36,739 nucleotides of DNA, from positions 1-36,739 of the forward strand of contig JAZDNF010000014.1 in the NCBI GenBank assembly GCA_043800255.1, read 5' to 3'. Below are positions 23,920 to 36,141 of the stretch, in pieces (within the stretch, counting starts at the first letter, position 1; each line of letters opens with the position of its first letter). The position numbers and the translations under genes were made by a program. The notes beneath the pieces are model-generated. The model had not been told where the DNA came from, made no database searches, and worked only from the letters and a program-made list of their open reading frames with translations. This DNA comes from Candidatus Altiarchaeota archaeon (GTDB taxonomy: Archaea > Altiarchaeota > Altiarchaeia > IMC4 > SCGC-AAA252-I15).

Positions 23920-25625
23920 GAATTGCGATACTGGACAAGGACAGGTGCAAGCCCAAGGACTGTAATTACCTTTGCATTAGGATGTGCCCTATAGTGAAAA
24001 CTGGGGGAGAGGCTATCGTAGTCGATGATGAGACGAAGAAGCCGGTCATTTCGGAGGACATGTGCACCGGATGCGGCATCTGCGTGAAAAAATGCCCCTT
24101 CGAAGCCATCACCATAATCAACCTCCCTGAAGAGCTGGGAGACCCGGTCCACCAGTTCGGAGTCAACGGGTTCCGACTGTATAATCTGCCGGTGCCGAAG
24201 AAGGGCGTCGTCGGCCTGGTGGGGGCGAACGGCATAGGGAAGACAACGGCGTTGAAGATACTCTCAGGAGAATTGAAACCCAACCTGGGAGCGGAAGCCG
24301 ACTGGTCTGACATCATGGAGAGGTTCAGAGGCAACGAGATACAGAATCACGTAGAAGCCCTGTCGGAGAAGAGGATAAAAGCAGTCTACAAGCCACAGTA
24401 TGTTGACGCCATACCAAGGCACTATCCTGGCAAAGTTAAAGAGCTGCTGGAGAAGGCTGATGAGAGAGGATGCTATAAGGATATCGTCAGCAGGCTGGAG
24501 ATAGGATCATCCCTCCAGAAGGACATAACAGAATTGAGCGGGGGCGAACTGCAGAGGGTTGCCATCACAGCGTGCCTATCAAGGGACGCTGACATCTACC
24601 TGTTGGACGAGCCTTCAAGCTACCTTGATGTGAGAGAAAGGTTGAACGTGGCGAGGCTCATAAGAAGCCTCAACGACAGATACATCATGGTGGTCGAACA
24701 CGACCTCATCGTATTAGACTACCTGTCAGACTACGTGCACGTCACCTTCGGAACCAGCGGAGCATACGGGATAATATCGAACATCAAAGGCGTCAGGGTC
24801 GGCATAAACGAGTACTTGGGAGGCTTCCTGAAGAGCGAGAACATGCGCTTCAGGAAGGAGATAAAATTCGACGTCAAGCCGCCGAAGGACACCGTACGGA
24901 GGGAGACGCTGGTGGAGTATCCTGAGATTGGGAAAAAATTTGACAGGTTCACGCTTAAGGTGGAGGCTGGCGCAGTATACAAGCCAAACATCCTGGGCAT
25001 ACTCGGGCCGAACGCGACAGGCAAGACGACATTTGCGAAGATACTGGCAGGAGAGCTGAAACCCGATGGCGAAGAGCTTAAGCTAAACGTCAGAATATCC
25101 TACAAGCCGCAGTACATCAGAACGTCTGATGAGCCTGTCGCAACCCTGAAGATAAAAAACGAGCTTGTGGAAACATTCAGGCTTCACAACCTGATGGACA
25201 GGACGCTGTCGCAGCTGAGCGGGGGCGAACTGCAGAGAGTCGCGATAGCAGACTGCCTATCAAGGGACGCGCATGTCTACCTTTTAGATGAGCCGTCAGC
25301 CTACCTTGACATCGAAGAACGCCTCTCCCTTTCGAAGCTCCTGAAGAAGTTCGCATACGATAATGACACCTCTGTGATGGTCATAGACCACGACATCCTG
25401 CTGGTAGACTACCTGTCCGAGGAGATGATGGTCTTCGCAGGAACGCCCGGAGTCGAAGGCCACGCAGGCAAGCCCACCAATTTGAAGAGGGGGATGAACG
25501 CGTTCCTGAAGCAGATGGACGTGACATTCAGAAGAGACCCTGAATCAGGAAGGCCGAGAGCCAACAAGCAGGAATCCGTGAAAGACAGGGAACAGAGAAG
25601 CAGGGGAGAATACTACTACGCCTAG
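23916..25625 (+). CDS. Ribosome recycling ATPase ABCE1 (Rli1)
   Basis: N-terminal Fe-S domain (CTGCGICVKKCP), two NBDs with LSGGELQR, C-terminal GEYYY. Confidence 0.96.
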   Translation: MRIAILDKDRCKPKDCNYLCIRMCPIVKTGGEAIVVDDETKKPVISEDMCTGCGICVKKCPFEAITIINLPEELGDPVHQFGVNGFRLYNLPVPKKGVVGLVGANGIGKTTALKILSGELKPNLGAEADWSDIMERFRGNEIQNHVEALSEKRIKAVYKPQYVDAIPRHYPGKVKELLEKADERGCYKDIVSRLEIGSSLQKDITELSGGELQRVAITACLSRDADIYLLDEPSSYLDVRERLNVARLIRSLNDRYIMVVEHDLIVLDYLSDYVHVTFGTSGAYGIISNIKGVRVGINEYLGGFLKSENMRFRKEIKFDVKPPKDTVRRETLVEYPEIGKKFDRFTLKVEAGAVYKPNILGILGPNATGKTTFAKILAGELKPDGEELKLNVRISYKPQYIRTSDEPVATLKIKNELVETFRLHNLMDRTLSQLSGGELQRVAIADCLSRDAHVYLLDEPSAYLDIEERLSLSKLLKKFAYDNDTSVMVIDHDILLVDYLSEEMMVFAGTPGVEGHAGKPTNLKRGMNAFLKQMDVTFRRDPESGRPRANKQESVKDREQRSRGEYYYA

Positions 25626-33335: not shown

Positions 33336-34606
33336 CAGGCCTCTTCGGCACATCAGGAATCAGGCGCAAGATTTCGGAACTGCCGCCTGAGTTCGCGGTC
33401 AACCTGGGGAGGGCGTTAGGCGCATACGCAAAGTCGGAGAATGTTGTCGTCGGACGGGACACCAGAAAATCAGGCCCGCTGCTGGAATCATCATTCATCT
33501 CCGGGCTGCTGTCAGCAGGCAAGAATGTCTTGGAACTGGGAGTCGTCCCAACGCCAACCGTGGGAGTCGGAACCTCAGAGCACGGCGCAGGGGTCATGAT
33601 AACAGCATCCCACAATCCTCCTGAGTACAACGGCTTCAAGTTCTGGGACAAAAATGGGGCTTTCTCCAAAAACCAGGAGGAAGAGCTTGAGAGCGTATTC
33701 ATAGGGAAAAAGTTCGCCGAAGGCAAACCTGGGGAGGTTCGAAGGGGGGAGTACATCAGGGAGCACATCAAGCTCATACTCAGAAGGGTTGGAACCGCGG
33801 AGGACGTCAAAGTCATGTTAGACTGCTCCGGAGGGTCTGGCTCTACAGTAACCCCATTGCTCCTGGAGGAGATGGGATGCAAGGTGAAGGTGATAAACGA
33901 CAACAGGGACGGCAGATTCCCCCATCCGCTGGAGCCTACGAAGGAGAACCTGGAGGACACCTGCAGCATAGTAAAAAAAGAGGGCGTTGACATCGCGTTC
34001 GCCCACGACGGCGACGCTGACAGGACGTGCGCGATAGACGGCAACGGGAATCTGATAGAGTGGGACACCTTCCTGACAGTGCTGGCCTCACAGAGCAAGA
34101 AGGTTGTGACAACAGTTGACGCTTCCATGCGGATCGAGGAATTCTGCGACAAAGTCTACAGGGTCCCAGTAGGCGACGTCGCAGTCGCTGACGGCATACG
34201 CAAGTACGGAGCAGGCTTCGGGGGCGAACCCAGCGGGACTTACATCTTCCCGGACGTTCACATATTCCCCGATGGCATAGCGACCGTCGGCAAGGCTTTG
34301 AAACTTGCCGCAGAGGGCGTATTCTACAAACTGGTCGAGGAAATCCCGACCTATCCGATGGAGAGGGTGAAGATCCCCTGCAGGCAGGCTGACAAGCAGA
34401 AGATCATGGGCAACCTGGAGAAAAATTTGAAAGGACTGGACTACTCCGACATCGATGGAATCCGAATACAAGAAGACGACGGGTGGATTCTCATCAGGCC
34501 CTCAGGGACGGAAGACTATGTCAGGATAACGGCAGAAGCGAAGACGCAGAAAAAACTGGACGAACTGGTGAAGAAAGGCAAACAGTGGATCAAAGAATCA
34601 TGTTAG
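33332..34606 (+). CDS. glmM: Phosphoglucosamine/phosphomannomutase family phosphohexomutase
   Basis: FGTSGIR, TASHNP, DGDADR, GEPSG, RPSGTE. Confidence 0.88.
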   Translation: MTGLFGTSGIRRKISELPPEFAVNLGRALGAYAKSENVVVGRDTRKSGPLLESSFISGLLSAGKNVLELGVVPTPTVGVGTSEHGAGVMITASHNPPEYNGFKFWDKNGAFSKNQEEELESVFIGKKFAEGKPGEVRRGEYIREHIKLILRRVGTAEDVKVMLDCSGGSGSTVTPLLLEEMGCKVKVINDNRDGRFPHPLEPTKENLEDTCSIVKKEGVDIAFAHDGDADRTCAIDGNGNLIEWDTFLTVLASQSKKVVTTVDASMRIEEFCDKVYRVPVGDVAVADGIRKYGAGFGGEPSGTYIFPDVHIFPDGIATVGKALKLAAEGVFYKLVEEIPTYPMERVKIPCRQADKQKIMGNLEKNLKGLDYSDIDGIRIQEDDGWILIRPSGTEDYVRITAEAKTQKKLDELVKKGKQWIKESC

Positions 34607-35013
34607 GTGTCGCAGACTACTTGGGCTATCCAGTTCCCGTTTTCTTCTTTTATTAAAAGTTCGTGATATGTTACGGCCTTCACCTCGGAGTTGAACCTGA
34701 ACTTTCCTGTAAGCTTCTCGCAGTCGAAAGATGCTGTCAGCCTGTTCCCCTCGACTCTGACGGAGAAGTTCCCGGACACCAGGTTTTCGGCGTAGAGCAG
34801 GTACAGGAGCTCGGAAAGCCAGTCATGCAGTAATGTTTCATTGTCCTTCGCCTCCAGGCGGACCTCCCTTCGACCGACCCTCTCGACGTTATAGTCTCCG
34901 AACATCGCGGTGAACATCGCGTTAGCGGCGTTGGAAAAACACTCTCCGATGCTTTTGCCATAGGCCCTGAACTTCAGGTCTCCTGTGCGCTCCAGAAACT
35001 CGAAACCTTTCAT
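34603..35013 (-). CDS. Archease (RtcB cofactor)
   Basis: FEFLERTGD, LHDWLSELLY, EVKAVTYH, C-terminal VVCDT; GGTGA SD. Confidence 0.9.
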   Translation of the reverse strand: MKGFEFLERTGDLKFRAYGKSIGECFSNAANAMFTAMFGDYNVERVGRREVRLEAKDNETLLHDWLSELLYLLYAENLVSGNFSVRVEGNRLTASFDCEKLTGKFRFNSEVKAVTYHELLIKEENGNWIAQVVCDT

Positions 35014-35022
35014 GTGAAGAAT

Positions 35023-35095
35023 CACCAGTCAGCACTAAGAAACCTTTGGTTTCTTGTGCGCGGTAACCGCTGCGCGGTTCCCCGCGAGACTGGTG
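35023..35095 (-). ncRNA. Three-way-junction RNA overlapping the archease SD
   Basis: P1 CACCAGTC/GACTGGTG; P2 GCGG..AACCGC-GCA-GCGGTT.CCGC; P3 GCACAAGAAACC-AAA-GGTTTCTT.GTGC. Confidence 0.65.
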
Positions 35096-35123
35096 GAATG
35101 GTGCGTTTCAAAAGTAGCCTGGA

Positions 35124-35309
35124 CTACAAGTCCTTGTCGAGGACTTCCAGTATCGGGGTCTTTACGACGGCCTTGCCACCTCTGGGCTCGGCCAGAACCC
35201 TCTCGCATACCAGGCATTTGACGACGGTTGACGCGCAGCCGAATATCACCTGCTCGTTCCCGCAGTCGTTGCATGTTACCCTCAGGAATCTGCTCTTAGT
35301 GTCTCCCAT
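35124..35309 (-). CDS. rps27e: 30S ribosomal protein S27e
   Basis: [18 protein letters not shown]...CLVC...PRGGKA. Confidence 0.95.
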
Positions 35310-35310
35310 T

Positions 35311-35595
35311 TTAGCTCTTTACCTCGGTAGTCTTCTTTGTCCTGGCTTTGTAGTGCTTCTGATGGGACTTGCCGCATACCTTGCACTTGAGGAGCAGGAC
35401 AACCCTCTTCCCCACCTTGTAAACCGGCTTTTTCGGAGTACGCGGAGAGCCACCGTATCCTCTCTTGACTTCGGTGTACTTACGCCTGCCCCTTGTCATC
35501 GTCCGCTCCTTTCCCTTTTTTGCAACCCTGACCTGGTGTTCAGTGTGCTTGTTGCAGTGCGGACAATGCGTTCTCAAAGTCTGTGGGACTTTCAT
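35311..35595 (-). CDS. rpl44e: 50S ribosomal protein L44e (eL42)
   Basis: [20 protein letters not shown]. Confidence 0.95.
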
Positions 35596-35637
35596 CTTGA
35601 ATGTATCTTAAGAATAGGGCAGTTTAGTATAAAAAGG

Positions 35638-36141
35638 CTAGAGTCTTTCAGCGTATCCTCTCTCGATGAGTATCCTCGCGTTTTCTGCCGGCAGCTGAAC
35701 AACGACATCCTTGGTGAACGGACCGTAGTCATTCATGTCAGGGCCGACTATGGAGGGGACTGCCTTCAGTATCTTCACCATCAGTTTCTCCGAAACGGGT
35801 GGAGGCTCCTCAGCCTCCTCTTCGACCACTTTCTGCTCTATTATGGACTTCCTGTGGGACTTCAGGACTCCGACAACGCGGTCGTAGAAGTCTTTCTCGA
35901 GGGGGATTATGTTCGACGGAGTCGCAGCGTAGTCCTCTGTGCGGAGGGAGTGCATGACTACCTTGTTCTTCCTCCGCTCGTAGATGTCATCAATAAGCGT
36001 TGCAAGGTATTTGCCATGCGACTCCTCGACCTTTGAGACGAGCTCCTTAACGTCCGCGTAGAAGGTCTCGGGAATCTTCTGCAGTGTCGGGGAGTTCTTC
36101 TCGCTCCGGTATATTCTGACAATGTCCTCGTAGGTTAGCAT
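35638..36141 (-). CDS. GINS complex subunit (Gins51-type)
   Basis: EKNSPTLQKIPETFY, RRKNK, C-terminal B domain VGPDMNDYGPF...NARILIERGYAE. Confidence 0.85.
   Translation of the reverse strand: MLTYEDIVRIYRSEKNSPTLQKIPETFYADVKELVSKVEESHGKYLATLIDDIYERRKNKVVMHSLRTEDYAATPSNIIPLEKDFYDRVVGVLKSHRKSIIEQKVVEEEAEEPPPVSEKLMVKILKAVPSIVGPDMNDYGPFTKDVVVQLPAENARILIERGYAERL

Follow-up and report, generated by a model that had tools for sequence, protein, structure and literature searches.

Between the genes for ribosomal protein S27e and archease, the minus strand of a 36,739-nt stretch of DNA from a Candidatus Altiarchaeota archaeon (JAZDNF010000014.1, here called the window) folds into a compact three-way junction, and the closing helix of this junction takes in most of the likely Shine-Dalgarno (SD) sequence of archease. 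The question raised by this locus is whether the junction is an RNA device dedicated to archease or whether it came to lie there for other reasons. A reading made from the sequence alone had proposed a dedicated cis element that couples archease to the upstream transcript or attenuates its translation. The evidence described here points with high confidence to a different origin. The junction is very probably two layers of mobile DNA, a terminal-only derivative of an IS200/IS605-type transposon and a second module nested within it, and not a dedicated RNA device. In what follows, G and L numbers denote other genomes and loci, G000 is the genome under study and C numbers are its contigs.

The three-way junction and its copies

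The minus strand from 35095 to 35023 folds into three helices, as the sequence-only reading had described. The closing helix, P1, consists of 8 bp (35088..35095 with 35023..35030) and encloses P2 (35060-35085, 4+6 bp) and P3 (35032-35059, 4+8 bp), leaving just 2+0+1 unpaired bases in the junction. The minimum free energy of the 85-nt stretch was -42.3 kcal/mol on this strand, compared to a mean of -21.6 kcal/mol for dinucleotide shuffles (z -7.32), and none of 200 shuffles was as stable. The plus strand was nearly as stable (-40.5 kcal/mol, z -5.5), both strands folding alike because the arms are palindromes. The 73 nt placed earlier between rps27e and archease are the length of the junction, which fills that much of the spacer; the whole spacer measures 110 nt (35014-35123).

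Searches of 34500-35700 with the Rfam 15 covariance models at a permissive threshold gave no match at the element, and the one sub-threshold match in this region, to Histone3 (E 3.5, 35421-35477), is unrelated. A tRNA-like junction was rejected since ARAGORN predicts no tRNA there. A hammerhead or other ribozyme core was ruled out by eye on the small number of unpaired junction bases, and inspection for C/D-box and H/ACA RNAs found no boxes in register.

The junction forms part of a longer repeat. A 98-nt unit (35013..35110, minus strand) is shared with G000:C7:299001-299097 at 93-94% identity by BLAST, the aligned block running from a TGAAA word 15 nt before P1 through a ...CACA tail. The C7 copy lies between a 298-aa open reading frame (ORF) that has no match in Pfam and, 82 nt after the copy, a gene for a GNAT acetyltransferase. 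A genome-wide BLAST search for copies, which the sequence-only reading had itself named as able to overturn its proposal, returned a near-identical copy among unrelated genes. A metagenome contig carrying the other copy aligned exactly to 35013-35110 with flanks unlike on either side, and a third genomic context of the composite was seen in a metagenome contig. In the relative G017, a 78% identical copy stands beside pilin-like and membrane ORFs, and its P2 and P3 are maintained by three compensatory changes. In P1, no pair changed on both sides and two of nine pairs were broken in the other copies (three sequences only), which is not the covariation expected of a cis element.

A covariance model (R1) built from the window, C7 and G017 copies gave 23 matches at E<=10 in the same genome, some of these being a single site matched in both directions; of the 21 genomes of its taxonomic family, 16 had matches at E<=0.1. 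Inspection by eye placed about 20 loci of this genome in one hairpin family, comprising two long types as well as minimal and fragment forms. The long forms contain two similar 9-bp hairpins with 3-4-nt loops and arms CCACCRGTC and GACYGGTGG, bordered by a T/A-rich hexamer on the left and a TTCTTSACA tail on the right. The minimal form, found at C15:130895 and C7:178010, is reduced to the left flank, one uninterrupted hairpin with a 3-nt loop, and the right tail.

The element in the window is this minimal form with 54 additional bases in the hairpin loop. On the minus strand, a left-end (LE) type flank (35096..35110) consists of the TGAAA word at 35106-35110 and 10 nt to the hairpin foot; with few changes, the same flank precedes the first hairpin in the type B copies and in the two minimal copies. 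The P1 strands correspond to the 5' arm (family motif CCACCRGTC) and 3' arm (GACYGGTGG) of a transposon-end hairpin. Within its 3-nt loop lies a nested two-hairpin module of two-fold symmetry (35032..35085), made up of P2 and P3. The right-end (RE) tail (35013..35022; family motif TTCTTSACA) closes the unit, and its last A is the A of the archease ATG. An alternative already offered by the sequence-only reading, a REP-like repeat, is upheld insofar as the element belongs to a dispersed repeat family; the family, however, is IS200/IS605-derived and PATE-like and carries a second, nested repeat, the short palindrome core quoted earlier being the tip of the nested module.

The neighbours of the approximately 20 copies are unrelated housekeeping genes, in either orientation and with no common function. 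The left terminus, on the side of the T/A-rich hexamer, and the right terminus (...SACA) are not complementary, and there are thus no terminal inverted repeats. No target-site duplication was found, the flanks of nine type A and five type B copies differing on either side. All left ends adjoin T(W/G)AAA-like words, which may equally belong to the element. The TGAAA word occurs at both borders of the window copy but not in the C7 copy, and is therefore read as chance or as target. A single suggestive co-variation was seen at the base four before the right hairpin foot: a C at this base goes with a ...GACA tail, a G with a ...CACA tail.

At no fewer than eight loci, the left-end hexamer precedes a divergent neighbour's start codon by 27-34 nt (these left ends are at C5:72000, C11:47465, C11:106110, C7:21543, C2:4120, C8:120078, C7:178058 and C11:111168). 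Read outward, the hexamer resembles TTTATA or TTTTAA, spaced as an archaeal TATA box would be ahead of a leaderless start. The element either targets TATA boxes or supplies one.

Two further copies deserve mention. At G000:C9:8620-8772 (L238), the inner part with the double hairpin is inverted within the same outer inverted repeat, as compared to C5:71839, C8:141535 and C11:47304. At G000:C11:47317-47570, the intron mode of ARAGORN calls a 'tRNA-Ser' with a 165-nt intron; this is really a repeat copy and represents an annotation trap.

The transposase link and the archease spacer

In L210, a Woesearchaeota metagenome-assembled genome (MAG), the same left hairpin and right hairpin-plus-tail enclose a 169-aa ORF that matches Y1_Tnp (PF01797; E 7.4e-21, 75 bits). 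This locus, L210:1500-2180 (minus), appears to hold an IS200-type element in full, about 680 nt long. The L211 MAG has a Y1-like C-terminus before the same right end, at the edge of a contig. Within the order of the organism studied here, a Y1 gene in G039 is flanked by hairpins with closely similar arms and a different tail, and Y1_Tnp genes occur in 14 of 49 genomes. The layout of the ends agrees with membership among IS200/IS605-derived PATEs: the end palindromes lie on the same strand, and the window copy presents one hairpin between LE- and RE-type flanks.

The right end is widespread among archaea. An 18-nt motif representing it was found, among the matches listed, in archaeal MAGs in 60 of 80 cases, with the partner arm and the same layout and in several MAGs with 3-7 copies; the labels of the motif-bearing MAGs among these matches are Woesearchaeota, Nanoarchaeota, Aenigmatarchaeota, Methanosarcinales and one Hodarchaeaceae (L170). 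No partner arm accompanies the bacterial matches (20 of the 80 listed), which fit chance, about 140 chance matches having been estimated for 596 Gb on both strands. Five small archaeal genomes contain the motif 1-7 times each, compared to none for a reversed control. Carriage by viruses was discarded, as the one IMG/VR match lies within a coding stretch without a hairpin partner and was taken as chance. One IS200-type end family is common to Altiarchaeota, many DPANN MAGs and one Asgard MAG, and its left end tends to lie against TATA-like words 27-34 nt ahead of the start codons of neighbours.

Elements of the IS200/IS605 group are moved by a Y1 HUH transposase that acts on single-stranded DNA ('peel and paste'). 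For this group, to which IS608 and ISDra2 belong, the relevant section of PMC7290912 describes ends with subterminal hairpins, a short conserved target word and no duplication. The repeats described here likewise have subterminal hairpins on the same strand and a short tail after the right hairpin, and in L210 a Y1_Tnp gene lies between the same ends. Unlike such elements, the window copy has no transposase and only a single hairpin.

A comparable derivative is known from haloarchaea. Passages of Dyall-Smith et al. (2011; PMC3119063) describe PATEs in Haloquadratum walsbyi and Natronomonas, including 52-bp terminal-only PATEs formed by deletion between two near-terminal palindromes, and report that Haloquadratum PATEs persist in one strain without intact IS200-type genes. 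The same passages describe SMR-A, small repeats with mirror ends and no target duplication that insert within PATE palindromes by a mechanism given as unknown. As far as these descriptions go, the present repeats resemble PATEs in that they are too short to code, lack terminal inverted repeats and target duplications, carry similar palindromes near both ends, have ends related to the IS605 type, include a minimal form with collapsed palindromes, and persist in a genome without an intact IS200-type transposase. They differ in belonging to the Altiarchaeota lineage, with the same ends in DPANN and one Asgard MAG, in the TATA-like word at the left end and, as far as can be told with no haloarchaeal sequences compared, in sequence.

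The nested module in turn resembles SMR-A, by the architecture given in those passages, in being small and non-coding, in its mirror ends, in the lack of a target duplication and in its position inside near-terminal PATE/IS605 palindromes. It differs in length (about 48-57 nt versus about 110 nt), in consisting of two bulged hairpins and in its commonest home, tRNA T-loop-like hairpins next to tRNA genes, a location of which those passages say nothing. On this reading, the window junction is the same two-layer arrangement as a terminal-only PATE with SMR-A in Haloquadratum, in another archaeal lineage. The part of PMC11602168 concerned with miniature inverted-repeat transposable elements reports their highest archaeal density for Candidatus Altiarchaeum hamiconexum.

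The genes around the element were compared in relatives. Archease (34603..35013, minus; 136 aa plus stop) has an N-terminus comparable with that of relatives and follows S27e (35124..35309, minus; stop codon 35124-35126) and L44e (35311..35595, minus), the first gene of the row. The names proposed for all three were upheld by Pfam (PF01951, E 3e-37; PF01667, E 4.5e-22; PF00935, respectively). Archease was detected in 20 of the 21 family genomes, and L44e-S27e lies directly upstream in 17 of 19 loci of relatives. Measured between the last S27e codon and the first archease residue that could be aligned, the span is 7-24 nt in 11 of 17 relatives, in several of which the S27e stop and archease start codons touch. 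It is 41-62 nt in three others and 135, 526 and 843 nt in the remaining three, where it is filled by other material. By the same measure, the span in the genome studied here is 115 nt. The element motif was absent from all 17 of these spacers.

Judging from these alignments, the L44e-S27e-archease row is a conserved feature of this Altiarchaeota family, and its tight packing is probably ancestral. Since the spacers of relatives lack the element and S27e and archease nearly abut in 11 of the 17, the element is best regarded as an insertion. This absence, together with the copies at unrelated loci, contradicts the notion of a dedicated element coupling or attenuating archease; overall, the earlier interpretation is partly supported. 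Contigs from public groundwater DNA (three runs) reveal strains about 3% diverged which carry the element at the archease locus, one such contig showing 73 differences from the window locus in 2201 nt. Because these related strains all carry it, the insertion predates them. In G013, the S27e-archease spacer is likewise enlarged (L087:1367-1501, 135 nt) and contains an unrelated 10-bp palindrome; this junction may have been struck independently by another hairpin element.

The following course of events would account for the present arrangement. The first layer, P1 with about 15 nt on its 5' side and about 10 nt on its 3' side, is very probably a terminal-only IS200/IS605 derivative whose left flank and right tail were fused around a single subterminal hairpin, as when two similar end hairpins recombine and the core is lost. 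The second layer, P2 and P3, is a miniature repeat of its own, with two bulged hairpins arranged as mirror images over 54 nt, and is situated in the hairpin loop of the first. The composite would have entered an old, tightly packed row, landing after the stop codon of S27e and ahead of the archease start. In this reconstruction it directly abuts the start codon, its last A now providing the A of ATG, and the sequence before insertion would have read either ...TGAAA/TG..., with the ATG kept, or ...T/TG..., with a TTG start (the slash marks the insertion point). A Y1 transposase supplied in trans would use the end hairpins as its sites in single-stranded DNA. Translation of archease would now depend on an SD-like word locked in P1 and would probably be damped.

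Several observations weigh against this reading. The assembly, which is 93% complete, contains no matches to PF01797 and PF07282; with neither a Y1 transposase nor a TnpB-type domain in it, no mobilising enzyme is at hand. Repeats and insertion sequences are often left out of assemblies. The transposase-bearing element with exactly this tail belongs to another phylum-level group and not to the family of the organism. Full copies have a sequence before the right-end hairpin that is missing from the terminal-only form, and this makes the present mobility of that form doubtful, although two to three composite copies exist. The relatives behind the short-spacer argument are distant, their archease being at most 48% identical. 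An empty site was not seen among the assembled contigs of four DNA runs, in which no joint skips the element. Finally, the target word and cleavage points are drawn from alignment boundaries only.

The predicted burial of the ribosome-binding site and alternative explanations

GGTGA occupies 35022-35026 and lies 8 nt before the archease ATG (35011-35013), with four of its five bases within the 3' strand of P1, in agreement with the sequence-only reading. Among 611 genes with an unambiguous ATG, GGTGA starts 39 times at -16..-6 compared to 3 times at -40..-28, and the counts for GGTGG at the same positions are 11 and 4. By this upstream enrichment, from which the word was taken as the 16S rRNA is not in this assembly, GGTGA is the SD-like word of this genome.

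The earlier claim that P1 buries this word was borne out in silico. The ensemble cost of freeing GGTGA before archease is 9.8 kcal/mol, compared to a median of about 2.9 kcal/mol for 39 other GGTGA-led genes, only one of which is higher; these costs were computed at 37 C on 150-nt contexts, and the groundwater organism lives colder. Mean unpaired probability (0.18, with 9 of 39 genes lower or equal) was set aside as a poor measure because the unpaired final A dominates it. On these computed values, archease translation is probably reduced by the buried SD, and the burial may be read as a side effect of the insertion.

The final A of GGTGA, at 35022, replaces the family G. It is private to this assembly: all covering contigs in four runs read G, including three that bridge the archease and S27e flanks. 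The family G would add a ninth pair to P1 and would give the weaker GGTGG. Either a first adaptive repair or drift could account for the A.

These values bear on an alternative in which the insertion came first and the junction was then exapted as an attenuator that now sets the archease level, P1 locking the SD until it is melted by temperature, by a protein or by a ribosome arriving from S27e. The high opening cost agrees with such a role, as do an A that creates the preferred SD word while removing a possible ninth pair and the retention of the element at this locus in the diverged strains. That A, however, is confined to one assembly while other contigs read G, and P1 shows no compensatory change. 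The 17 orthologous leaders do without the element, and the same composite stands before the GNAT gene with no adjoining ATG. An exapted attenuator is thus unlikely. On paper the arrangement is the same as in known SD-sequestering leaders such as thermometers and attenuators, with an SD word paired 8 nt before the start. It is unlike them in that it is not conserved with the gene, its sequestering helix shows no covariation and the structure occurs at unrelated loci.

These results have consequences for annotation. Stable junctions in archaeal leaders that look designed can be stacked mobile repeats, and a strong z-score at one locus is not evidence of a riboregulator. Here, the insertion split a conserved, translationally coupled row and gave archease an SD locked in a helix, which amounts to a natural experiment in operon tolerance.

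Two further alternatives would give the repeats a function of their own, and both are very improbable. As a host DNA site, they could be bound as an operator, serve a nucleoid protein or belong to a domesticated system of the REP/RAYT type. Palindromes of 9-3-9 layout suit dimeric DNA binders, and the position of the left-end hexamer before divergent start codons is TATA-box-like at the eight or more loci given above. Against this, the neighbouring genes have no common function, a divergent neighbour is lacking at the left end of both the window and the C7 copy, no Y1- or RAYT-like gene is present in the genome, and the same ends flank an IS200-type transposase elsewhere. REP and BIME repeats are dispersed intergenic palindromes of HUH-transposase ancestry that, when transcribed, can change the mRNA stability or translation of a neighbour. 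Compared to REP/BIME with RAYT, the present repeats have no RAYT-like gene, are longer and composite, and belong to an archaeal lineage.

The second of these takes the copies for a family of small non-coding RNA genes, with the T/A-rich hexamer as TATA box and the hairpins as RNA. The structures are indeed very stable, and a TWWAAA-like hexamer is conserved 8-12 nt before the first hairpin in most copies, in other phyla too. A start about 25 nt after the hexamer would, however, fall within the first hairpin. The copies lie in either orientation to their neighbours with no common T-run after the element. Both strands fold alike, the same ends flank a transposase gene, and Rfam gives no match.

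Least credible is a self-referential loop in which the element would be a bulge-helix-bulge (BHB) intron or processing site of the archaeal kind, cleaved by the tRNA splicing endonuclease and sealed again by RtcB together with archease. One weak motif brackets the whole element (window 35003-35014 with 35109-35120, minus), the letters of its central 4-bp helix are identical to those in a tRNA-Met intron of the same genome, and module-like double hairpins occur inside two tRNA introns; but the bracket has three G-T pairs and an inner helix of only 2 bp, is absent from the C7 copy, would on cutting remove the archease start codon and is probably chance. No BHB motif (two 3-nt bulges around a 4-bp helix) was found at the module borders in the window or in four T-loop copies, and the scan was unspecific, matching also within the D-arm and T-arm of control tRNAs.

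The nested two-hairpin module and tRNA genes

With the junction read as two layers of mobile DNA, the tRNA-linked two-hairpin module is the more interesting lead. A model of the module, R2, scored 62.8 bits (E 1e-12) on 35032-35085 and matched the opposite strand too. The module lies in the hairpin loop in the window, C7 and G017 copies. Fourteen copies from 12 genomes, although very different from one another in sequence, have a common architecture of 3 bp, a 1-nt bulge, 8-9 bp and a 3-5-nt loop, followed by the mirror image. Across these copies, 96.8% of cells pair, compared to 26-47% in slid controls, and 16 of 23 pairs change on both sides. R2 matches both strands at 6 of 11 loci in the genome; the likeness of the strands suggests constraint on DNA, or on both transcripts. 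At E<=1e-6, R2 matches occur in 18 of the 21 family genomes.

Scanning strictly for perfect Watson-Crick modules gave 16 in the genome and none in each of three shuffles; the strict scan misses the window's own, slightly irregular copy. Of these 16, 11 fall within an ARAGORN tRNA gene or no more than 200 nt from one, although such zones amount to just 1% of the genome. A loose scan admitting G-T pairs and one mismatch was uninformative (203 matches versus 160 in a shuffled genome). The modules of this genome, which cluster at tRNA genes, include C16:32927-32978, C8:278996-279043, C7:325188-325237, C7:156452-156507, C11:42211-42265, C8:132966-133015 and C13:14719-14767.

The usual position of the module in relatives is inside a T-arm-like hairpin, which it splits directly behind GTTCRAA. 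This was the case at 8 of 14 loci outside model training, in addition to the training copies. The split T-arm often belongs to a partial duplicate of the 3' part of an adjoining intact tRNA gene; splits in such 3' duplicates are seen at L047:100-240, L061:1500-1690 (minus), L046:280-520 (minus), L054:1470-1760, L277 and L281. In G018 (L281), a unit of half T-arm, module, other half and spacer is repeated in tandem, 101 nt apart, a layout that tandem duplication followed by insertion would give, as would integration of a circle of about 100 bp. Other homes of the module are a D-loop (C11:42211), the anticodon loop of a 5' duplicate at the canonical intron position (L051), a hairpin inside a tRNA intron (L289), tRNA introns of the genome itself (C5:16259, C8:278868) and other palindromes. 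Double hairpins that look unrelated sit in the end hairpins of four further copies in this genome and in Woesearchaeota copies.

It is conceivable, though we would put it forward only tentatively, that P2 and P3 belong to a class of miniature mobile element not described before, present in Altiarchaeota and, to judge by architecture, in DPANN as well, which lands in the loops of pre-existing stem-loops. As aligned here, such an element would be 48-57 nt long, would consist of two mirror-image bulged hairpins and would have the tRNA T-loop as its commonest site. On the same tentative footing, it would survive where the host hairpin is dispensable, as in partial tRNA duplicates and dead transposon ends. 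Searches of the literature on Altiarchaeota tRNA introns and on tRNA, T-loop, miniature and palindromic elements found no description of the module, which is not proof of absence. Non-canonical tRNA introns may draw on the module as a raw material. Its movement might take place in RNA, by way of the splicing endonuclease and the RtcB-archease ligase, or depend on some hairpin-recognising DNA enzyme. The copy before archease would then be a by-product of the machinery that archease serves. Because the module is strongly tied to tRNA genes, ideas on how odd tRNA-gene interruptions arose and spread in uncultivated archaea become testable.

Predicted introns are frequent in the tRNA genes of this genome. 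With introns allowed, ARAGORN interrupts 25 of 32 plausible tRNA genes near position 37-41, with intron lengths of 23-113 nt (for example C11:96624-96757, C5:18255-18417 and C16:32755-32923). Another four predictions, whose introns would measure 165-1102 nt, look spurious. Many of the introns share a hairpin of the GAAAGAAAG type, and those of C5:16194-16380 and C8:278800-278991 contain a module-like double hairpin.

Elsewhere in the window, two 125-nt direct repeats (24535-24659 and 25216-25340) lie 681 nt apart and are 74% identical, with a shorter related word at 24221.

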